DNA of 64,000 bases from Alphaproteobacteria bacterium. Its GTDB lineage: Bacteria > Pseudomonadota > Alphaproteobacteria > UBA828. How positions within the stretch are numbered: position 1 is the stretch's first letter; every line of letters starts with the position of its first letter. The notes beneath the pieces were generated by a model. The model had not been told where the DNA came from and searched no databases. It saw only the letters and a list, made by a program, of their open reading frames with translations. The position numbers were made by a program, and so were the translations under genes. The DNA is taken from contig CBDCCI010000002.1 in assembly GCA_965214705.1 (NCBI GenBank), forward strand, positions 1,760,001-1,824,000, written 5' to 3'. This document shows, one piece after another, positions 5,466 through 31,148 of the stretch.

Positions 5466-5532
5466 TCATATCAGGACACGGGGAGCAAGTTCACTATTTC
5501 AGGCAACTCGCTGGAGGGCCTAGCCAAGGGTT

Positions 5533-5574
5533 AAGGGTTGGGCAGGCTCTCTCTCGAGAGCCTGCCCAACCCTT
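5533..5574. repeat. Terminal 19-bp perfect hairpin of element A1 (4-nt loop)
   Basis: AAGGGTTGGGCAGGCTCTC-TCTC-GAGAGCCTGCCCAACCCTT. Confidence 0.95.
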
Positions 5575-6897
5575 TTGAACGGAGGCGCGGGCCACGAGAG
5601 GCGAAGTTGAGCTATGTGGAAAGTGCGCTGATGTCAGCGTCAGGCGGCATCCACCGGCAGCAGAGTTGCGCATGAGATCGACGCTCGCGCCGGCCTTTCG
5701 GCAGGCATGCGGGCGCACGCTGCGAGGACTGAGCGGGGTGTGAGCCGAGGGCTGTCAGCCCGGCCCAAGCGGAGACAGGTTCGGTCGTGCGTCGGCGCTT
5801 TGGCGCCGTTGCGCGGGGCCGAAGCGAGCGGGCGTCTCACGGTTTCCCCCTGTGGGTCGGCGGCACGGCCGGCGGACCGCGCGTCGAGCGGGGCTCATGG
5901 CGGCGGCGGATTTCGCGGACGAGGCGCATGACGCCGCCGCAGTGGGGGCAGGCCACGGGCGCGGTGTCGATCACGGTCTCTTCGTCGGGCTCGGCCCGAG
6001 CGCCGCCCACGCTTTCCTCGGGGACGGCGCAGCCGAGGGCGCCGAGAGTCTGGCGTGCTCTCTCCAGCGTGCTGGCGCGACAGCCGTTGGCGAGAATGCC
6101 GAAGTAGCGGATGCGGTGCATGCCGTCCGGCAGGACGTGCATCAGGAAGCGGCGGATGAACTCGTCTGCGCTCACGGTGGCGATGCCGTAGCGCGGCTTT
6201 CTCTGCCCCGGCGCCTTCGGCTTGCGGTGGCGGAAGGAGACCGTCTCGCCGTCGAAGGAGACGATGCAGCTGTCGGAGATGGCGATTCTGTGAGTGTAGT
6301 GCGACAGGTACCGGAAGACCTGCTCAGGCCCGCGGAAGGGCCGCTTGGCGTAGACCACCCAGTCCCTGGCCCGGGCGGCGGCAAGCGTGGCGTGGAACTC
6401 GCCGGGATTGGCGAGGTGGGCGAGGGTGCCGTGGAACTCCAGGTCCCCCCGGCCGTGGGCGCGGGCGAGCTCCTCGAGGAAGAGGCGGCGGAACAGGCTG
6501 CCGAGGACCTTGACGGGGGCGAGGAAGGTGGTGCTCCCCGTCTTCCACTCGCCGCTGTCTACGTCGAAGCCCGCGTTGGGCACGACCACGTGCAGGTGCG
6601 GGTGGAAGCGGAGCTTCTGATCCCAGGTATGGAGGACCGCTGTGCCGCCGATGCGCATGCCACCGTGGTGGGGATCGGCGGCGATGGTGCGCAGGGTCTC
6701 GGCGACGGCCCGGAAGAGGATGTCGAACACCACCCTTCGGTTGCAGAAGGCAATGGCGGCGACCTCCTTGGGCAGGGTGAAGACCACATGGAAGTAGGGC
6801 ACCGGCAGGATGTCCCCGGCGCGGGCCTCGCTCCAGAGGTTGGCGGCGAGACCCTGGCAGGTCGGGCAGTGGCGGTTGCGGCAGGAGTACTTATGAG

Positions 6898-7234
6898 CTC
6901 TCTCTGCAAGGCCCGACTTCATCTACGTGAATGGCATTCGTGATCTCCCCATTCGCATCCGCGGCCGATGTCCAGGCAGAACGTCTTTTCCACGCAGCAG
7001 CTTGTCACGCTGCTCAGCTCTTATCCGGTTCGGAACTCCGGCTCTCGCCGGCTCCGCGACCCCAATACCGCATCCAGGCGGTGACGACGTTCCGGGAGAC
7101 GGGACCCATCTGTAGAACGGTGCCATTCGGCGACCCAACTCTTGCCCGGTCACACGCCTTGCCCGGCATCCTCCGCGGTCGCGTCCGACCACGTCGGAAC
7201 CTCCTGCTCTCTCCTTCTCGTTCGGCCAACGCCG
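6898..7234 (-). ncRNA. Putative seekRNA/bridge RNA of IS1111-type element 2
   Basis: Same scaffold as 2380-2702 (TTATCCGG, CCCAAT, GTTCCGG, GGGACCCATC, CACACGCC). Variable 7-mers TGTAGAA (7111-7117) and TCCAGGC (7073-7079) each match their own target arm 5/7. Confidence 0.65.
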
Positions 7235-8431
7235 TCAGGAGACGATGGCGCCCTCGGGCACCAGTCCCTGGGTGGCATAGCGCCACAGCGCGATCAGCAG
7301 CTTGCGCGCGACCCCCACGATCGCTCGCTTCCTCGCTCGCCGGTCCCTCCCGCCACCGGCGTCCCTGGCAACGTAGGCATGGAACCACTTTGTGATCGCG
7401 CTTTCCGGTTGCAGTTTCAGCCAGCGCCAGGCCATCTGGATCATGTGTTTCCTGACATGCGAGGGGCCGGCCTTGCTGATGCCGAGATCGTGGTCAACAT
7501 CTCCGCTCGCCCACGGCACCGACGTCAACCCGGCCCAACTGCCCAGCTCGCGCCGATTTCGGAAGTCCCGATAGAACACCTCGCCGGCCAGCAGCGTCGC
7601 GTCGTTGAGGCCGATGCCGTGAATGCGCGTGAGCGCCGCAATCATCGCCGTTCCGTCGCGATCGGACGCGTCCTGGGCTTTCCGGCCAGCCTTCAGCAGG
7701 GCCCTCTTCTCGGCCTCGATCGTGTCGATTTGGCCCTCAATCAGGCGAAGCATCGACGACGCCCTCTCGATCTCCGCCCGCGCCCGCGGCGGCAGCGGCG
7801 CTCCATAGCCCGTCCGTGCGGGCGCGAGCCGTTCGAGAAAGTCCGGCTTGCGCGGCGCCAGATCGAAGATGCCGTGCAGCTGCAAAAGCCCCTTGATCCG
7901 ATTGTTGAGGCGGGTGCGCTCACTGACCAGCGTGTCCCTCTCGCGTAGCAGGCGCCTGGCGTCCTCCCGGTCCACATCCGGCACGCGCACCCAGGACATG
8001 GCCTCCGAATCGCCCTGGTCCCACGCCTTCAGTGCGCGAACCATCCTCCTCGCATCGATACGATCGGTCTTTTTCTTCTTGGCGCGCCGGTTCACCCGCA
8101 GGCTCGCCGGATCGTTCATGAAGATATCGATCTCCGCGTCACGGCGCTCGATATCGCGGGCCAGCCAGAACCCCTCGTAGCCCGCCTCGTAGGTCAGCAT
8201 TACCCGCGGACGGGCGCCCAACTCCCTCGCCACCCGTTCCCGCACCGACCCGACGAGATCCAACAGTGCCGCCGTGTCGGCAGCGGCCAGTGTGTGGATG
8301 CTGATGCTGCCGCCCGAGGCATCCGGGCAATGCACGCCCACAATCCACGATTTGAGGCTGATCTCCACCGCAACGTAAATCGTGCTATGAGTTGCGCCTG
8401 TCAGCGCGGTCGTGTCTGGACCATTCGACAT
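7235..8431 (-). CDS. IS110-family recombinase/transposase
   Basis: VAVEIS, YEAG, KTDRIDA, PWASG, VARKL; divergent paralog of 2703-3890. Confidence 0.95.
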   Translation of the reverse strand: MSNGPDTTALTGATHSTIYVAVEISLKSWIVGVHCPDASGGSISIHTLAAADTAALLDLVGSVRERVARELGARPRVMLTYEAGYEGFWLARDIERRDAEIDIFMNDPASLRVNRRAKKKKTDRIDARRMVRALKAWDQGDSEAMSWVRVPDVDREDARRLLRERDTLVSERTRLNNRIKGLLQLHGIFDLAPRKPDFLERLAPARTGYGAPLPPRARAEIERASSMLRLIEGQIDTIEAEKRALLKAGRKAQDASDRDGTAMIAALTRIHGIGLNDATLLAGEVFYRDFRNRRELGSWAGLTSVPWASGDVDHDLGISKAGPSHVRKHMIQMAWRWLKLQPESAITKWFHAYVARDAGGGRDRRARKRAIVGVARKLLIALWRYATQGLVPEGAIVS

Positions 8432-8733
8432 CCGTCCGCTCCGTTGTTGACGATCTCTCTCGGAGAGAAGGTGCTGGCCTTCTCTCCGAGTTTCTTTAGC
8501 CGTCAGACTCGATTCGGTGCCACCCGCTCATGGTATCTGAAGAGCGGATGCTCGCGCCCGCAGCCCTCGCAGGCGTACATGTGGCCGCCGAGCACGGCGG
8601 TGCGGCACGCCTCGATGGCGCCCATGACCTTGAGCCGGGCGGCGTCGATGCGCCCTTTGTGGCGCTCACGGAAAGCGGCGCCGGCGCGGCGGAGGATCTC
8701 CGCCACGCCCGCGCGTTCGGCCTCCACGCGCCG

Positions 8734-9612
8734 TCAGTTGCGCAACGCTGCGAAGCCTGAGATCGGGTGGTCGAGGCCCTCGAACATCTTGCCGGTGACG
8801 CGGGCGTAGTGACGGGTCGTGTTCGCGCTTCGATGGCCGAGCATGTCCCGGATCACCTCGATATCGCCGCCGCGCTCGAGGAGATGGGTCGCCGCCGAAT
8901 GGCGCAGGCAATGGAAGGTGTAGCTGCGGTCGAGCTCGGCAATGTCGCGCGCCCTCCTGAAGGCGGCCTGCAAGGTCTCCGTTGCGATGGGCCTGTCGAG
9001 CGAGACGCCGTAGAAGAGCCAGCTCGTCGGACGCGGCCAGATGTTCCTGTAGTAGGCGCGCAAGTAGTGGATGACGCTGTCCGGCAACGGTGCCATTCTC
9101 TCGGTGCCGCCTTTGCCGGAGGGGATGTGCAGCAGCTTCTTCTCCGACAGGATGTCGCCGACCTTGATGGCCAAGGTCTCGGAGATGCGGAGCCCGCCGC
9201 CATAGCCGGTGACAATGGCAGCACGGTGGCGGAGGTCGGGCGTCGCAAGGATGAGGTGCTCGACCTCCTGCTCCGACATGTAGCGCGGCAGCTTGCCGGG
9301 CTTCTTGCGGGAGCGCAGGCCGGCGACGTGGTCAGGCCAGCCGAGTGTGTCGATGTAGAGGAAGTTCAGCGCGGCGAAGGAGACGTTGGTCGTGCCCGGA
9401 CTGAGCCCCTTGTCGATCCGCCCCAGGTACCACTGGCGCACCTGCTCGGCGTCGAGCTCGTCCGGCGAGGCGTCGTAGTACCTGGCCAGGTTCTTGATCT
9501 CGCAGATGTAGGCCTTGGACGTGCTCGCGGCCAGATTGGCGATGCGGAGCTGCTCCTCCATGCGCTGGCGAAGAGGGGTGACGGTGTTCGTGTCGCACGC
9601 GGTCCCGGTCAT
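8734..9612 (-). CDS. Tyrosine recombinase/integrase of element A1
   Basis: GLRISE, GKGG, HCLRH, LGH and TRHY catalytic motifs; start chosen at MTGTAC after a GGAGA RBS. Confidence 0.93.
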   Translation of the reverse strand: MTGTACDTNTVTPLRQRMEEQLRIANLAASTSKAYICEIKNLARYYDASPDELDAEQVRQWYLGRIDKGLSPGTTNVSFAALNFLYIDTLGWPDHVAGLRSRKKPGKLPRYMSEQEVEHLILATPDLRHRAAIVTGYGGGLRISETLAIKVGDILSEKKLLHIPSGKGGTERMAPLPDSVIHYLRAYYRNIWPRPTSWLFYGVSLDRPIATETLQAAFRRARDIAELDRSYTFHCLRHSAATHLLERGGDIEVIRDMLGHRSANTTRHYARVTGKMFEGLDHPISGFAALRN

Positions 9613-9923
9613 TATCGATCTCCCTGGATCGCGACGGCGCGCCGCCGGACCGATCCGGCGACGGTCCGTCGCAGGGGTCGATGCTAACCACTGGTGATCG
9701 GGAGGCTGCTGGGGATCCGCCACTCGACGGGCGGAGCGCCACTGACGCAACCGGGAAGCGAACGCACAGGGCAAACGGCACCCGCGACGCCTCGGAAATG
9801 AATGAACTCTACGCCGCTAACTCCGCGTAGCGGCTTCGTTCTAAAGCCGAAGTACAAATCCGCCCTGGCAGGAATCTCGCGCAGGATGACGACATTGGTC
9901 AGATGTGGTAGCCTGTGGCCGTT

Positions 9924-9994
9924 CTCTTCACGGGGCCTCTTCACGGGGCCTCTTTACGGGGCCTCTTTACGGGGCCTCTTTACGGGGCCTCTTT
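9924..9994. repeat. Tandem repeat, 13-bp unit CTCTTYACGGGGC x5 plus partial
   Basis: Directly visible; no spacers; ends ~30 bp upstream of the lipoprotein start. Confidence 0.95.
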
Positions 9995-10116
9995 GAAGCG
10001 CGTTCGGGAGGGAGGCCCTGAAATCCATGACTACAAAAATCAGGAATTTACCGCTTGTGGCGGTGGCAGCGTTGGTGCTGACCGTGTCCGCATGCGGGGG
10101 TGGCGGCCCGGCCACC

Positions 10117-20131: not shown

Positions 20132-20744
20132 CAGCCGCCTCGACCTGCTCTGATGCCCGCGTCTGACACCGCGGGATTCAGACCCCCCCTCGCCATATCG
20201 GCGGGCCAGAGATGCGGCCTTCGGCCAACGAAAGAGCCTCGGCATCCCGGATGATGTTTCTTTCGGTGCTCAATAGCTCCGCCCACACGCGCCCCTGTCA
20301 ACGCTTGACCCTCGCCCTCGCGAGCGACGGCCCATGACTCGGGGTGGAAGTGGTGGCTCACCTTCTCCTTCCTGTTGGACTTTCACCAACTGCACTCGCA
20401 CCAGTTCGCCTGGCGCACACCGTTCCCACTCCGCATCGGTGGCCATGACCGCGCGCTGGTGCCGTCCGCCGGCGTCCTCCTTCATCGTGGCCATCCGCCC
20501 GTAGGGACCTGCTGCAACCGCGACACGCGGCTACCCTTGAATGTAGAATAGATCACGAAATTCATATGGAATTCCTAGCACCAAATATTATATGCCATAC
20601 GTGTGTCCTGTCTGAATGATCCATTTTCGCCACAGGCACCATATCAGTGCTCCACAGGAAATTCCACATCTCGGCTTCCCCAAATGCAACTCACAAGAGA
20701 CACAAGATCAGCCGATGTGTCCTCCACCTTCGCTCCATTCGCCC

Positions 20745-24947: not shown

Positions 24948-25184
24948 TCCGTCCTGAACGAAGCCGCTACGCGGAGTTAGCGGCGTAGAGTTCATTCATT
25001 TCCGAGGCGTCGCGGGTGCCGTTTGTTCTGTGCGTTCGCTTCCCGGTTGCGTCAGTGGCGCTCCGCCCGTCGGGTGGCGGATCCCCAGCAGCCTCCCGAT
25101 CACCAGTGGTTAGCATCGACCCCTGCGACGGACCGTCGCCGGATCGGTCCGGCGGCGCGCCGTCGCGATCCAGGGAGATCGATA

Positions 25185-26063
25185 ATGACCGGGACCGCGT
25201 GCGACACGAACACCGTCACCCCTCTTCGCCAGCGCATGGAGGAGCAGCTCCGCATCGCCAATCTGGCCGCGAGCACGTCCAAGGCCTACATCTGCGAGAT
25301 CAAGAACCTGGCCAGGTACTACGACGCCTCGCCGGACGAGCTCGACGCCGAGCAGGTGCGCCAGTGGTACCTGGGGCGGATCGACAAGGGGCTCAGTCCG
25401 GGCACGACCAACGTCTCCTTCGCCGCGCTGAACTTCCTCTACATCGACACACTCGGCTGGCCTGACCATGTCGCCGGCCTGCGCTCCCGCAAGAAGCCCG
25501 GCAAGCTGCCGCGCTACATGTCGGAGCAGGAGGTCGAGCACCTCATCCTTGCGACACCCGACCTCCGCCACCGTGCTGCCATTGTCACCGGCTATGGCGG
25601 CGGGCTCCGCATCTCCGAGACCTTGGCCATCAAGGTCGGCGACATCCTGTCGGAGAAGAAGCTGCTGCACATCCCCTCCGGCAAAGGCGGCACCGAGAGA
25701 ATGGCACCGTTGCCGGACATCGTCATCCACTACTTGCGCGTCTACTACAGGAACATCTGGCCGCGTCCGACGAGCTGGCTCTTCTACGGCGTCTCGCTCG
25801 ACAGGCCCATCGCAACGGAGACCTTGCAGGCCGCCTTCAGGAGGGCGCGCGACATTGCCGAGCTCGACCGCAGCTACACCTTCCATTGCCTGCGCCATTC
25901 GGCGGCGACCCATCTCCTCGAGCGCGGCGGCGATATCGAGGTGATCCGGGACATGCTCGGCCATCGAAGCGCGAACACGACCCGTCACTACGCCCGCGTC
26001 ACCGGCAAGATGTTCGAGGGCCTCGACCACCCGATCTCAGGCTTCGCAGCGTTGCGCAACTGA
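25185..26063 (+). CDS. Tyrosine recombinase/integrase of element A2
   Basis: R-K-HxxR-H-Y motifs; nearly identical to 8734-9612. Confidence 0.93.
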   Translation: MTGTACDTNTVTPLRQRMEEQLRIANLAASTSKAYICEIKNLARYYDASPDELDAEQVRQWYLGRIDKGLSPGTTNVSFAALNFLYIDTLGWPDHVAGLRSRKKPGKLPRYMSEQEVEHLILATPDLRHRAAIVTGYGGGLRISETLAIKVGDILSEKKLLHIPSGKGGTERMAPLPDIVIHYLRVYYRNIWPRPTSWLFYGVSLDRPIATETLQAAFRRARDIAELDRSYTFHCLRHSAATHLLERGGDIEVIRDMLGHRSANTTRHYARVTGKMFEGLDHPISGFAALRN

Positions 26064-26069
26064 CGGCGC

Positions 26070-27311
26070 GTGGAGGCCGAACGCGCGGGCGTGGCGGAGA
26101 TCTTCCGCCGCGCCGGCGCCGCTTTCCGTGAGCGCCACAAAGGGCGCATCGACGCCGCCCGGCTCAAGGTCATGGGCGCCATCGAGGCGTGCCGCACCGC
26201 CGTGCTCGGCGGCCACATGTACGCCTGCGAGGGCTGCGGGCGCGAGCATCCGCTCTTCAACTCCTGCCGCAACCGCCACTGCCCCACCTGCCAGGGTCTC
26301 GCCGCCAACCTCTGGAGCGAGGAGCGCGCCGGGGACATCCTGCCGGTGCCCTACTTCCATGTGGTCTTCACCCTGCCCAAGGAGGTTGCCGCCATTGCCT
26401 TCTGCAACCGCAGGGTGGTGTTCGACATCCTCTTCCGGGCCGTCGCCGAGACCCTGCGCACCATCGCCGCCGATCCCCGCCACGGCGGCATGCGCATCGG
26501 CGGCACCGCGGTCCTCCATACCTGGGATCAGAAGCTCCGCTTCCACCCGCACCTGCACGTGGTCGTGCCCAACGCGGGCTTCGACGTAGACAGTGGCGAG
26601 TGGAAGACGGGGAGCACCACCTTCCTCGCCCCCGTCAAGGTCCTCGGCAGCCTGTTCCGCCGCCTCTTCCTCGAGGAGCTCGCCCGCGCCCACGGCCGGG
26701 GGGACCTGGAGTTCCACGGCACCCTCGCCCACCTCGCCAATCCCGGCGAGTTCCACGCCACGCTTGCCGCCGCCCGGGCCAGGGACTGGGTGGTCTACGC
26801 CAAGCGGCCCTTCCGCGGGCCTGAGCAGGTCTTCCGGTACCTCTCGCACTACACGCACAGGATCGCCATCTCCGACAGCCGCATCGTCTCCTTCGACGGC
26901 GAGACGGTCTCCTTCCGCCACCGAAAGCCCAAGGCGCCGGGGCAGAGAAAGCCGCGCTACGGCATCGCCACCGTGAGCGCCGACGAGTTCATCCGCCGCT
27001 TCCTGAGGCACGTCCTGCCGGACGGCATGCACCGCATTCGCTACTTCGGCATCCTCGCCAACGGCTGCCGCGCCAGCACGCTGGAGAGAGCACGCCAGGC
27101 TCTCGGCGCCCTCGGCTGCGCCGCCCCCGAGGGAAGCGTGGACGGCGCTCGGGCCGAGCCCGACGAAGAGCCCGAGATCGGCACCGCGCCCGTGGCCTGC
27201 CCCCACTGCGGCGGCGTCATGCGCCTCGTCCGCGAAATCCGCCGCCGCCATGAGCCCCGCTCGACGCGCGGCCCGCCGGCGCTGCCGCCGACCCACAGGG
27301 GGAAACCGTGA
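26070..27311 (+). CDS. IS91-like HUH (Y2) transposase with Zn-binding domain
   Basis: CEGC..CRNRHCPTC, HTW.Q....HPHLH, YLSHY, IRYFG, CPHC. Confidence 0.95.
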   Translation: MEAERAGVAEIFRRAGAAFRERHKGRIDAARLKVMGAIEACRTAVLGGHMYACEGCGREHPLFNSCRNRHCPTCQGLAANLWSEERAGDILPVPYFHVVFTLPKEVAAIAFCNRRVVFDILFRAVAETLRTIAADPRHGGMRIGGTAVLHTWDQKLRFHPHLHVVVPNAGFDVDSGEWKTGSTTFLAPVKVLGSLFRRLFLEELARAHGRGDLEFHGTLAHLANPGEFHATLAAARARDWVVYAKRPFRGPEQVFRYLSHYTHRIAISDSRIVSFDGETVSFRHRKPKAPGQRKPRYGIATVSADEFIRRFLRHVLPDGMHRIRYFGILANGCRASTLERARQALGALGCAAPEGSVDGARAEPDEEPEIGTAPVACPHCGGVMRLVREIRRRHEPRSTRGPPALPPTHRGKP

Positions 27312-27573
27312 GACGCCCGCTCGCTTCGGCCCCGCGCAACGGCGCCAAAGCGCCGACGCACGACCGAACCTGTCTCCGCTTGAGCCGGGCTGACAGCCCT
27401 CGGCTCACACCCCGCTCAGTCCTCGCAGCGTGCGCCCGCATGCCTGCCGAAAGACCGGCGCGAGCGTCGATTTTATGCGCAACTCTGCTGCCGGTGGATG
27501 CCGCCTGACGCTGACATCAGCGCACTTTCCACATAGCTCAACTTCGCCTCTCGTGGCCCGCGGCTTCGTTCAA

Positions 27574-27615
27574 AAGGGTTGGGCAGGCTCTCTCTCGAGA
27601 GCCTGCCCAACCCTT
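27574..27615. repeat. Terminal 19-bp hairpin of element A2
   Basis: Same stem as 5533-5574; loop is in the opposite orientation relative to the element. Confidence 0.95.
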
Positions 27616-27839
27616 AACCTTGAACTGAGCCGCGTTCCGCGGCGGGGCGCCTCGGCCGCCGGGTGCCCAGAGTGATCTCCTTGCCGCGCGTAAGTTGAGT
27701 GTGGCCGTTCGCTCCAGCGTCTGGGCGCAGGGTCGAATCCTGTTTCTCCCTCGTTGATCGATGGTCGTCGACCGCCAAGCCGGCGAGCAAGAGCATGGGC
27801 GTGTCTTCGTGACAGACCAAACCCAGAGGGAGACGCCCC

Positions 27840-28694
27840 ATGACGGCACTTCGCCAGCGCATGATCAACGACATGACGGTTCGCGGCTTCGCCGAGAACA
27901 CCAGGAAGTCCTACCTCAACTCGGTCTCCGGGCTCGCGGTTCACTACGGTCGCAGCCCCGAGCACATCTCAGCGGAGGAAGTCCAGGAGTACCTCATCTT
28001 TCTTCACGAAGAGCGGGGGCTGGCTTGGCAGAGCTGCAACAGCGCTCGCCAAGGGATCCGCTTCCTCTATCGCATCACGCTGGGCTTGCCCGAGCCGCAC
28101 TTCTATCTGCCCTTCGCCAAGACGCCTTCCACCCTGCCCGTACTGCTCAACCAAGACGAACTGGTGCGGCTGTTCAGCGTCACCATCAACCGCAAGCACC
28201 GCGCCTTGCTGATGACGGCCTATGCAGCGGGGCTTCGGGCGAGCGAGCTCGGCCGGTTGCAGATCAGCGATATCGACTCACAGCGGATGTGCCTGCGCGT
28301 CGATCAGGGCAAGGGCAACAAGGACCGCTACGTCCCGCTCTCGCCCCGGCTGCTCGACGAGCTGCGCGAGTACTGGCAGCGGGTACGGCCCGAGCACTGG
28401 CTGTTCCCCGGTCGGATTCCCGGCCGGCCGATGACGCGCCATGGGCCAGCACACGTTTACGATCGAGCCAAGGACAAAGCCGGGATCGCCAAGCCCGGCG
28501 GGATCCACACGCTGCGCCATTGCTACGCCACCGGGCTCCTCGAGGCCGGCGTCGAGCTGCATGTCATCCAACGCCGCCTCGGGCACACCTCAATCCGCTC
28601 GACCATGCGCTACCTTCACCTTGCTCACGACAAGACGTCCGCCACGCCGTCGCCCCTGGACCTGCTGGAGTTTCCGCGTCCTGCCCAGGCCTGA
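27840..28694 (+). CDS. Tyrosine recombinase/integrase of element B
   Basis: MTALRQRMI N-terminus, GLRASE, GKGNKDR, HTLRH, LGH, TMRY. Confidence 0.95.
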   Translation: MTALRQRMINDMTVRGFAENTRKSYLNSVSGLAVHYGRSPEHISAEEVQEYLIFLHEERGLAWQSCNSARQGIRFLYRITLGLPEPHFYLPFAKTPSTLPVLLNQDELVRLFSVTINRKHRALLMTAYAAGLRASELGRLQISDIDSQRMCLRVDQGKGNKDRYVPLSPRLLDELREYWQRVRPEHWLFPGRIPGRPMTRHGPAHVYDRAKDKAGIAKPGGIHTLRHCYATGLLEAGVELHVIQRRLGHTSIRSTMRYLHLAHDKTSATPSPLDLLEFPRPAQA

Positions 28695-28697
28695 CCG

Positions 28698-30589
28698 GTG
28701 GCTCATGTCGGCCACGCGGCGCCAGCCACACGGCCGGCGCTGGAGGTCGCGGACATCCTGCGCGAGCGCGGCGACGCCTATGGCGAGACACATCTGCTCT
28801 CGGCCCAGCAGCAGAGGGTCGTCGACGCGCTGGTGAACTGCCGCACCGCTGTGCTCGGCGGGTTCAAGGCAGAATGCGATCACTGCGGGGCGGTGACGAT
28901 CCAGTACGCCTCGTGCCGGAACCGTCATTGCCCCAAGTGCCAGACCCTCTCGCAGACCAGGTGGGTTGAGCGTCAGTGCGCCGATCTGCTCGACATCGAC
29001 TACTGGCATGTCGTGTTCACCCTGCCCCACGAGCTCAACCCCGTGGCCCAGGGCAATGCCGCGCTCATCTACAGGCTGCTCTTCAAGGCCGCCTCCCAGA
29101 CCCTGCTCGAGTTCGGCCGCAATCCCCGCTGGCTCGGCGGCGAGCTCGGCATCACCATGGTGCTGCACACTTGGGGGCAGAATCTGGGAGCGCCAGGCTA
29201 ACTCTGTCGTGGATAGCCGGTGAAAGTCCGGTGAAGGGAAGGACTAACGAACCACCCTTGCCTTGAGCCGTGCGTCGGCCTTCGCGAGGAGGCAGGCGAA
29301 GCGTCGGTAGAGGTGCGCGTGGGCAGGACATTGAGCACCGAAAATGCCGTCATTCGGAGTGCCGAGGCCATCCAGAAGGTCGAAGGCAACACCGGCCGCC
29401 CGCTTTCGTGAGGGCCGGCAGGGCTCCGCGGTGTCCAAGACCCCAGGCACGCGCGTACGTCCACACAGGGGACCTGGGAGGCCTCTTCATCACCCGTGCC
29501 TCAGAGTGCGGGTCGTGACGGGAAGGGTGGATGCCCATAGCCGTCGATGTACGATGGGGAGGAATCTGACTCGGTCGTAGTACCGTTGAAACGGGGGAAC
29601 AAAGGGGCGTGACAACCTTGGCGGACTTCGTGGAGGAAAGGACCGGGGCCAACGGGAGATCGGGGACCTGAAGCATGTGCCGGGCACAGAACCGGGTAAG
29701 CATGTCACAGGAGGGTCTCCGAACACGCCGCCGTGCGAGACGTCGCAAGAGCGACGAGAGTGCGCCGGACGTCTGACCGGAGGCAGGAGCCGGATGCCTT
29801 AGCGGGCACGTCCGGATCTGCGCGGGGGGCGCTGGGTAACCAGCGTCCCTACCGCGAAGACAGCACATCCATGTCCACTGTATCGTCACCGACGGCGGTC
29901 TGAGCCCGGACAGAGAGCGCTGGCTCACTCCCGCGCGCAAGGGCTTCCTGTTCCCCACGGTCGCGCTCTCGAAGGTCTTCCGCGGCAAGTATCTCGACTT
30001 CCTCGGCGCCGCGCACCGCGACGGCGAACTCCGGCTCAAGGTCGTCGGCGGTGGTGACGACAGCCGCGAGTTCGAGTGTCTGAAGACCGCGCTGCGGTCG
30101 AACGACTGGGTGGTCTACACCAAGGCCCCGTTCGCCGGCGCCGGGCACGTTCTGGCCTATCTCGGGCGCTACACCCACAAGGCTGCCATCGCCAATCATC
30201 GCCTCGTCGACTTCGACGGCGAGCACGTTCGCTTCCGTTGGCGCGACTACGCTGACGGCAACAAGGTCAAGGTGATGCGTCTCGACGTCGACGAGTTCAT
30301 CCGCCGCTTCCTCCTGCACGTCCTCCCGCGCGGCTTCACCCGCCTGCGCCACTACGGCTTGCTCGCCAATCGCTGCCGGGCTCGCAAGCTCGCCCGCTGC
30401 CGAGACCTGCTCGGCCAGCCTGCCCCTGAACCGCGGGAGCCGGAAACGACGCAGCAGATGATGCTGCGACTGACGGGGATCGACATCACCGTGTGCCGCC
30501 AGTGCGGCGAGGCAACGCTGCGGCAAACCGTCATTCTTGAGCCGCAGCCCCAAGCAGCCATGCGGGCGACGAATACCCGACCGCCGTGA
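28698..30589 (+). CDS. IS91-like HUH transposase interrupted by a group II intron (join 28698-29187, 29859-30589; 406 aa)
   Basis: Spliced sequence reads HTWGQNLG-QHIHVHC, 1221 nt in frame; CRNRHCPKC, YLGRY, LRHYG. Confidence 0.88.
29188..29858 (+). ncRNA. ORF-less group II intron (671 nt)
   Basis: 5' GAGCGCC; domain V GAGCCGGATGC..GCACGTCCGGATC; domain VI ending CCCTACCGCGAA; EBS1-like CCAGA (29372-29376) complementary to exon end TCTGG (29183-29187); only IEP termini remain. Confidence 0.9.
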
Positions 30590-31148
30590 CGATGCGTCAG
30601 AACCGACAAGGTCCGACAACAGTCCCCCCGGCCGCCGCGCCGCGACCGCTCCTGCGCCCGCTTCGTGCTGCCCGGCGGCGAAACATCGTCGCGAGCCCCT
30701 GCACAGCCGCGTCGCAACCTGATAAGTGGAGATTCAGAGTGCCGGCGCCGCCAGCGACACCAACAGGTTGCACCGCTTCGGCCTAATCGGCTCCCACCCA
30801 GCGGTTACTTTCCCCATAGCCCGGCACTACGGCCGTGCAGCGCGGCTCAGCTCAATGCCTGTATCGGTCCTGCTGCGCACGACCGATACAGGCCAATTCA
30901 TTATGTGCAGTTGAACATAAGACGGAGGCCGCTCCTGGGCTCGGTCGGGCTGATCCTGCGCGACAGGTAGCGGCGCAGGAACTCCTTCTCCCAGGCGCGG
31001 GTGCGCTTGAGCGCCCGAGTCAGCTCCGGCTCTTCCATCGTCATCATCACGATGTAGGGTAAGCGGTATCGAGGCCCCATACTTCCAACGCATCTGATTT
31101 CGCGGCTGACTCTTGGCCTTGGCAAGGAGCCTTGGAGGAGGCATCGCG

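Follow-up and report, generated by a model that had tools for sequence, protein, structure and literature searches.

The window analysed here, a 64,000-nucleotide stretch of an alphaproteobacterial genome (lineage UBA828; contig CBDCCI010000002.1, positions 1,760,001 to 1,824,000), holds three IS91-family elements with a tyrosine recombinase gene upstream of the transposase gene, as seen in the open reading frame (ORF) listing and in Pfam and NCBIfam scans. They are of two types, A (copies A1 and A2) and B, which belong to a deep subgroup of the IS91 family in which a Xer/IntI-like recombinase gene lies directly upstream of a Y2 HUH transposase gene. The arrangement of about 90 copies of A in the genome suggests that the recombinase, and not the transposase alone, places the element at its target. 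We propose, as a reading that we hold to be evenly balanced, a two-enzyme route in which a single-strand circle produced by the HUH transposase serves as substrate for the recombinase, which integrates it through a single strand exchange. This reading is favoured because transposition by the HUH enzyme alone leaves unexplained a dyad with a 6-bp spacer in the target, the dif-like sites of B, a right-tip tail of spacer length, and the near-obligate presence of an intact recombinase.

The search covered the whole 7.92-Mb genome (G000, in three contigs, C1, C2 and C3), where exact motif matching located 100 left and 95 right ends of A, forming 88 pairs; 66 of the paired copies are nearly identical and measure 2,661-2,668 bp from GAAC to AACC. 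Most copies are separated by just 0-3 bases, a sign of a very recent burst. The element also occurs in head-to-tail arrays, A-A and A-B, and a perfected palindrome stands at the A-A tandem joint, which template switching would explain. Element A, with some 90-100 copies, makes up about 3% of the genome, and its depth in public contigs is about eight times that of B.

The dinucleotide TT stands to the left of GAAC in 84/88 copies and to the right of AACC in 72/88, the latter count being corrected for eight copies that carry a 2,090-bp insertion sequence (IS) in the tail. For 29 copies, paralogous empty sites were identified within this genome, which is rich in insertion sequences. Usually, an empty N-TT-G becomes a filled N-TT[GAAC...AACC]TT-G. 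In all three copies that combine a non-TT right flank with an empty site (C1 14074, C1- 678701 and C2 495334), the left TT is missing from the empty site; examples of such sites are GCGTCT^CTTCCC and GAGTA^CTATAC (carets mark insertion points or joints). The element therefore brings its own TT, and nothing is duplicated. Element A is TTGAAC...hairpin...TTAACC, 2,666 bp long, and it is inserted in one orientation, without duplication, directly 5' of TT(G). The initial annotation had described the elements as free of target-site duplications, and the comparison of empty with filled sites bears this out, even though TT flanks both sides of 72 of the 88 copies. In the window, copy A2 is laid out as follows:

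24954..27619, plus strand: element A2, 2,666 bp including the left dinucleotide (CT here); an intact copy, its ends taken from the 88 paired copies and the empty sites
24954..24967, plus strand: left inverted repeat (IR-L) of A2, (T/C)TGAACGAAGCCGC, with its complement at 27560-27573
25185..26063, plus strand: tyrosine recombinase gene of A2, 292 aa from its ATG (the listed ORF begins at 25023)
26070..27311, plus strand: IS91-family Y2 HUH transposase gene of A2, 413 aa, seven bases after the recombinase gene
27560..27573, plus strand: right inverted repeat (IR-R) of A2, GCGGCTTCGTTCAA
27574..27615, plus strand: subterminal hairpin of A2, 19-bp stem with the loop TCTC (minority orientation)
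27614..27619, plus strand: right-tip tail of A2, 6 nt, TTAACC, its first two bases also being paired in the 19-bp stem

Element B, the second type, adjoins A2 directly on the right:

27620..30900, plus strand: element B, TTGAACTGAG...CAATTCA, abutting A2; 13 left and 9 right ends genome-wide
27840..28694, plus strand: tyrosine recombinase gene of B, 284 aa, 33% identical to that of A
28698..29189, plus strand: transposase gene of B, part 1, PF14319; it stops just ahead of the HUH motif, and the gene is continuous in intron-free copies elsewhere
29190..29858, plus strand: ORF-less group II intron in the B transposase gene, 669 bp, Rfam RF02005 at 168 bits, foreign to the design of the element
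29859..30589, plus strand: transposase gene of B, part 2, PF04986
30841..30900, plus strand: right end of B, with IR-R CGCGGCTCAGCTCAA at 30841-30855, hairpin at 30857-30893 and tail CAATTCA at 30894-30900

Both types share a terminal design. In A2, the left repeat GAACGAAGCCGC (24956-24967) has its complement at 27560-27571, while in B the repeats at 27620-27634 and 30841-30855 match at 14/15 positions, so that the corresponding 15-mers pair, and the right repeat of A1 (GCGCCTCCGTTC) carries two mismatches. These repeats had been annotated at the outset (12/12 in A2, 14/15 in B, two mismatches in A1), and reading the sequence confirms them; only their extent had to be revised, since TT belongs to the element and the repeat of A is therefore longer, spanning 14 bp, with the left TTGAACGAAGCCGC pairing with the pre-hairpin GCGGCTTCGTTCAA. 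IR-R is found in every right end of A, with two mismatches in old copies, and IR-L of A2 is followed by a small subterminal palindrome (GCCGCTA...TAGCGGC). Past the right repeat stands a hairpin, with a stem of 19 bp in A2 (27574-27615) and of 13 bp in B (30857-30893). These stems had been correctly noted, but as features external to the elements. All 91 right ends of A found by BLAST extend through the hairpin to ...CCCTTAACC and diverge only beyond it, and breaks in contigs from four public runs fall at 24955 and 27619-27621, which places the hairpin inside the element, in a subterminal position 6-7 nt from the right tip. The tail measures 6 nt in A, 6 nt in diverged A-like copies (TAAAGA, TTAAGA) and 7 nt in B. 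Moreover, compensatory changes in the hairpin are seen in the diverged A copies, as well as in the relatives of B in genomes G029 and G178. In 86 right ends the loop of A is GAGA; in eight others, including A2 (window 27593-27596), it is the exact complement TCTC. The flip is recurrent, as it is found on several single-nucleotide polymorphism backgrounds, and so frequent a flip is in keeping with repeated extrusion of the hairpin.

Regarding the two enzymes, the A2 recombinase matches PF00589 at 114 bits, as well as PF13495, and the catalytic residues R142, K167, H234, R237, H260 and Y269 are invariant in an alignment of A, B and two diverged copies, in agreement with the full catalytic motifs reported initially. 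The recombinases score 118-135 bits on the XerC/XerD models of NCBIfam (cut-offs of about 330), and 130 and 158 bits on the IntI model TIGR02249 (cut-off 265); they are thus Xer/IntI-like, yet fall under every curated Xer and IntI cut-off. The extra domain specific to IntI is missing, because the match splits and skips model positions ~176-252, and the closest solved structures are those of Xer proteins and IntI4. The transposases pass the IS91 equivalog NF033538 (382 bits for A and 432 for B, with a cut-off of 125) and contain the Pfam domains PF04986 and PF14319; residues H159, H161 and H163 (HUH), and Y257 and Y261 (YxxxY), are invariant in the same four sequences. Both genes are under purifying selection, the ratio of nonsynonymous to synonymous substitution rates being 0.36-0.57 in the recombinase gene and 0.31-0.32 in the transposase gene. 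The gene pair had been claimed for all three elements of the window, and this stands; an intact Y2 gene is found in A2 only, as that of A1 is split by an IS110-family element and that of B by the intron.

The target profile of A was derived from 87 distinct sites. On its right arm, T prevails at +1 (71/87) and +2 (84/87), G at +3 (42/87), C at +6 (63/87) and G at +7 (49/87), which resembles the element's own left end, TTGAACG. A mirrored, weaker left arm is made up of A at -7 (41/87) and -8 (42/87; p ~1e-11 each), G at -12 (42/87) and C at -13 (42/87). The target consensus is a dyad, CGnnCAA-N6-TTGnnCG, with insertion at the border between spacer and right arm, and the complementarity of the arms peaks at a spacer of 6 bp (201/609 cells, versus 183 at 5 bp, 172 at 7 bp and 129-162 at the rest). 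In addition, pyrimidines are favoured at -1 (73/87) and -2; a pyrimidine at -1 would let the GG of the element pair with the target after the strand swap.

For B the pattern is sharper in this genome, as it sits at the corresponding border of ACATAA-N6-TTATGT, a dif-core-like dyad: its four distinct left flanks end in ACATA(A/G)-N6, and 8/9 right flanks begin with (T/C)TA(T/C)GT. The dif site is built 11-6-11, and the B dyad matches its conserved inner part (PMC2731167, Table 1). Only two unoccupied CATAR-N6-YTATG dyads are present in the genome, at C3:1885744 and C1:3589632. The former coincides with the cumulative GC-skew maximum of its replicon, and is probably the real dif of that replicon, unoccupied. 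The dyad at C1:3589632 is a perfect B-type palindrome.

These targets bear directly on the main rival possibility, that the elements transpose by the HUH enzyme alone, as in IS91, by a nick at the hairpin end, transfer into TT(G) and termination at the left end. The recombinase would then be a helper, which may pair or mark the ends via the inverted repeats, improve termination like Orf121 of IS91, or resolve tandem or multimeric products. The transposases passing the IS91 equivalog with the scores given above, the lack of duplication, the fixed orientation and the short target motif abutting the transposase-distal end all speak for it, and the A-A and A-B head-to-tail arrays would be available for resolvase action. 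Subterminal palindromes are likewise present at both ends of IS91 and of two other integrase-less copies, and the accessory gene upstream in IS91 tunes termination (PMC13181058 for both). However, neither the 6-bp-spacer dyad of A nor the dif-core-like dyads of B are accounted for in this way, and the same holds for a tail of spacer length. Moreover, a mere DNA-binding helper would not need fully conserved catalytic residues, which are here kept over 33% identity, and the repeat that links the tip to the pre-hairpin stretch was not seen in three integrase-less elements. We consider transposition by the HUH enzyme alone a tentative alternative, somewhat doubtful, and keep it at that level because an HUH nick after CAA could produce every junction.

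The geometry of the junction brings the ends and the target together. The 6-nt tail of A has the length of the target spacer. When the right and left ends are joined computationally, they fold into a 13-14 bp stem formed by the inverted repeats, a bulge of 4-6 nt on one side, made up of the tail, and the hairpin, with a minimum free energy of -33 to -42 kcal/mol and z of -9 to -13, and in this folded junction the arm/spacer border coincides with that between stem and bulge. Read on the gene-complementary strand, the junction is CGTTCAA^GGTTAA, arm then spacer, and the target likewise is CGnnCAA^ followed by the spacer. Arm then spacer is the polarity at which tyrosine recombinases cleave. By analogy with the IS91 model, the gene-complementary strand would be the one displaced from oriIS.

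The same dyad targets, with insertion at the arm/spacer border, could also be obtained if the recombinase performed all the end chemistry, excision and integration alike, on a double-stranded circle that the HUH protein only replicates, in the manner of a plasmid Rep; the HUH family is indeed related to rolling-circle replication proteins (PMC10288648). Nevertheless, a double-stranded junction has no good left arm at 6 bp, CCAACCC being found where CGTTCAA is expected, and the presence of 66 near-identical intact copies speaks for a copy-and-paste mode and against excision. In addition, the non-TT dinucleotide is found only at the right junction in 3/3 informative copies, and nothing of the target recurs at the left junction, which fits the exchange of one strand. 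We therefore regard a purely recombinase-driven, double-stranded route as improbable.

Under the two-enzyme route that we favour, the transposase would nick the gene-complementary strand at the right end, where the hairpin would act in an oriIS-like way, as in IS91. The nicked strand would be displaced by replication, cut a second time behind the ...GTTCAA of the left end, and joined end to end as a single-strand circle, in which the two repeats would pair to give a long hairpin composed of the repeat stem, the tail as a one-sided bulge of 4-6 nt, and the hairpin stem. This folded junction would be bound, together with the double-stranded dyad target, by the recombinase of the element, which would exchange one strand pair at 5'-CAA^, the arm/spacer border; replication would then complete the insertion, as for the CTX phage at dif or integron cassettes at attI. 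The initial annotation had proposed that the HUH enzyme makes a single-strand circle and that the recombinase acts on it at a folded end, and this idea is partly supported: the inverted repeat, the targets with a 6-bp-spacer dyad and the folded junction speak for it, while the hairpin alone is not evidence for the recombinase.

Several observations weigh against this route. The dyad of A is a property of the consensus and not of covariation within sites, since permuted pairings of the arms score 217 versus 201, and its left arm is weak; for B, the dif-like flanks were not seen in the two relatives (82% identical) in G029 and G178. Catalysis by the recombinase is putative, and an HUH nick after CAA on the same strand yields identical junctions. 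The TT-containing target beside the right end is also IS91-like, as IS91 targets CTTG and GTTC (PMC13181058), and the tail together with the end of the hairpin stem resembles the CCTAT(A/G)C tips of integrase-less copies, so that the hairpin may serve the transposase alone. In two copies, A2 and that at C3 286979, the rule is inverted, with CT at the left end and TT at the right, and the empty site of A2 (on C2, at B's left junction) has CT; the targets of these two copies have TGAA in common with the left end of the element, and the copies differ from each other at one informative site and in loop orientation. One old copy of A has AT on both sides, and two copies have one or two extra T. The orientation of A relative to GC skew (36 vs 52, p = 0.11, with a scrambled skew) shows no clear bias. 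Apart from these points, the contigs of the four public runs, in which rare forms are dropped, contained no circle junction or go-back joint, and no usable empty site was found in related genomes, which are of different species and have flank identities of at most 85%.

Is the terminal design a family trait? A profile of four transposases retrieved 593 relatives from contigs representing one genome per species, and the best 79 loci were analysed; these have 41-78% transposase identity and come from Alpha- and Betaproteobacteria, Acidobacteriota, Planctomycetota, Gemmatimonadales, Syntrophomonas and Ignavibacteria. A recombinase gene lies directly upstream in 78/78 of the loci that have upstream DNA, and in 64/66 loci from a metagenome sample, i.e., in 142/144 combined. 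For the inverted repeats, a motif-anchored test against shuffled controls was used, as the raw repeat score had to be rejected: shuffles reached a score of 11 in 39/51 loci (maximum of 20 shuffles each). With the anchored test, the repeat linking the tip with the pre-hairpin stretch was found in 35/51 loci of the species contigs and in 25/33 metagenome loci, versus 19/1,020 and 17/660 shuffles, respectively, amounting to 60/84 analysable loci versus 36/1,680 shuffles. Downstream of IR-R, the next 90 nt form a fold of z <= -2 in 19/35 and 20/25 loci, with stems that are unrelated in sequence. A check in homologs had been suggested in the initial annotation; its outcome, a recurrent repeat and hairpin fold with compensatory changes in close relatives, establishes the shared terminal design as real and family-wide. 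Regarding candidates for a second high-copy target logo, the metagenomes offer one locus at 77% and others at 44-56%, and the element of G097 is present in 4 copies.

The recurrence of the hairpin also bears on the idea that it is only a transcription terminator and that the inverted repeats are functionless leftovers. The hairpin does stand downstream of the last gene. However, it is not followed by a T-run, a terminator scan makes no call there, and it lies ~250 nt past the stop codon, invariably adjoining IR-R and separated from the tip by 6-7 nt; it is, furthermore, kept by compensatory changes and recurs with unrelated sequence across phyla. We hold the terminator explanation to be very improbable indeed.

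Three integrase-less copies of the IS91 family were read for comparison, namely L093 (annotated as IS91), L095 (from Pseudomonas syringae), which we take to be IS801, and L094, which we take to be IS1294. Each of the three carries palindromes at both ends, that on the left being small (GCAGCC...GGCTGC), while no inverted repeat joining the left tip to the pre-hairpin stretch was seen in them, their tips being located approximately. A right-end palindrome is also described for oriIS (PMC13181058). As this palindrome occurs in integrase-less copies as well, the hairpin alone is no pointer to a recombinase; it is probably the oriIS feature of the IS91 family, and it is the inverted repeat that probably accompanies the recombinase.

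Entries of the IS91 family with an upstream tyrosine recombinase ORF are listed in ISfinder and TnPedia, where its role is given as unknown. For these entries, neither the ends nor a target dyad nor a mechanism has, to our knowledge, been described, and our literature searches found no paper on the role of the recombinase, or on the mechanism, in such elements. A and B share with canonical IS91, IS801 and IS1294 the NCBIfam Y2 HUH equivalog, the absence of target duplication and the fixed orientation. A short T-containing target at the transposase-distal end, palindromes at both ends and, in IS91, an upstream accessory ORF are further likenesses (PMC13181058). Unlike in canonical IS91, the upstream gene of A and B encodes a tyrosine recombinase with complete catalytic residues, an inverted repeat of 12-17 bp connects the left tip with the segment preceding the right hairpin, and the consensus of the targets forms a dyad around a 6-bp spacer. 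Moreover, A inserts between C and TTG, and not 5' of the whole CTTG or GTTC, i.e., with a register shift of one base.

In the CTX phage, single-stranded DNA is made by an HUH rolling-circle protein, and a hairpin folded from that strand mimics a recombination site; a Xer-type recombinase exchanges one strand pair, and replication finishes the process. The boxes of integron attC sites have the consensus TTRRRY and RYYYAA. Replication and tyrosine recombinases are involved both when CTX inserts at dif and when cassettes insert at attI (PMC9345347). The targets of B are dif-core-like, as in CTX-type insertion; in contrast, the recombinase of A and B is encoded by the element rather than being host XerCD, and the candidate chromosomal dif is unoccupied. 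In further contrast to CTX-type phages, A is a 2.7-kb insertion sequence with ~90 scattered copies at non-dif targets, described here from its sequence. The resemblance of A to integron cassettes extends to its start, TTGAAC, which fits TTRRRY, and to the pre-hairpin GTTCAA, which fits RYYYAA; in an arrangement reminiscent of attC, two repeats are predicted to pair around an imperfect hairpin, with the junction at AA^ on the folded strand, and the recombinases of A and B are related to IntI (130-158 bits on TIGR02249). They differ from integrons in that the recombinase is below the IntI cut-off and has no extra IntI domain, there is no integron platform, and the element encodes its own HUH enzyme. 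With IS200/IS605 elements and Helitrons, A and B share single-strand chemistry, end-marking subterminal hairpins and the absence of duplication (PMC10288648). Those elements use the HUH enzyme alone, in Helitrons with a fused helicase, and are not known to have a fixed tyrosine recombinase partner.

A broader reading would be a third route of single-strand insertion, beside those of CTX-type phages and integron cassettes, in which an HUH-made circle would be combined with a dedicated recombinase, operon-fixed across phyla, that reads both junction and dyad, and in which target choice (CAA-N6-TTG, or dif-like sites) would be set by the recombinase; we place this broader claim a little short of an even chance. 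If the two-enzyme route is true, it would link rolling-circle transposons with Xer- and integron-type single-strand recombination, and would explain the homing to dif-like sites. The IS91 family moves resistance and virulence genes, and its subgroup with a recombinase gene is large and widespread. The data set is unusually clean (88 copies, 29 empty sites and two diverged elements), and the route makes testable predictions on the transferred strand, the phosphodiester that is cut, the 6-bp spacer, the dyad target and the folded junction.

Some further observations concern the right end of A in the genome. A candidate case of right-end read-through, in the eight A copies that share right flanks, proved to be the 2,090-bp IS inserted in the tail. 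This IS, with ends CGAACTTCC...GGAAGTTCG, targets CTTAAxC-like sites (e.g., C3:1555947-1558046); in the eight copies it has landed within the region of the 6-nt tail, with the tail restored on its far side. At C1:3505988-3506037, a solo 50-bp palindrome, GGTTAA-hairpin-TTAACC, occurs with no A body; here two right ends of A are fused tail to tail, each with its own flank, one of these flanks being B's left end, and no reciprocal head-to-head product was found in the genome.

The remaining features of the window concern the older copy of A, which lies on the opposite strand:

5529..9843, minus strand: element A1, an older A copy with left dinucleotide TA, two mismatches in IR-R and a split transposase gene
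6889..8537, minus strand: IS110-family element in the A1 transposase gene, 1,649 bp, PF01548 and PF02371

Among 18 full copies of this 1,649-bp IS110-family element, 13 are inserted at an identical site, directly after ...CCGCTCTTCA, within A-type transposase genes, and 3 further copies have nearly identical flanks; the element is a site-specific parasite of the A-type IS, or is carried along with it. The left flank of A1 adjoins a tandem array of 13-bp units (AAGAGGCCCCGTA/G, at least six units) at window ~9900-10000. As to the group II intron of B, it is missing from the other B copies of the genome, and five identical copies of it are present, two of them near-tandem on C1 (1859847-1861186). 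A second group II intron match, to D1-D4 with 149 bits, is located at window 20159-20383 on the minus strand, outside elements A and B.

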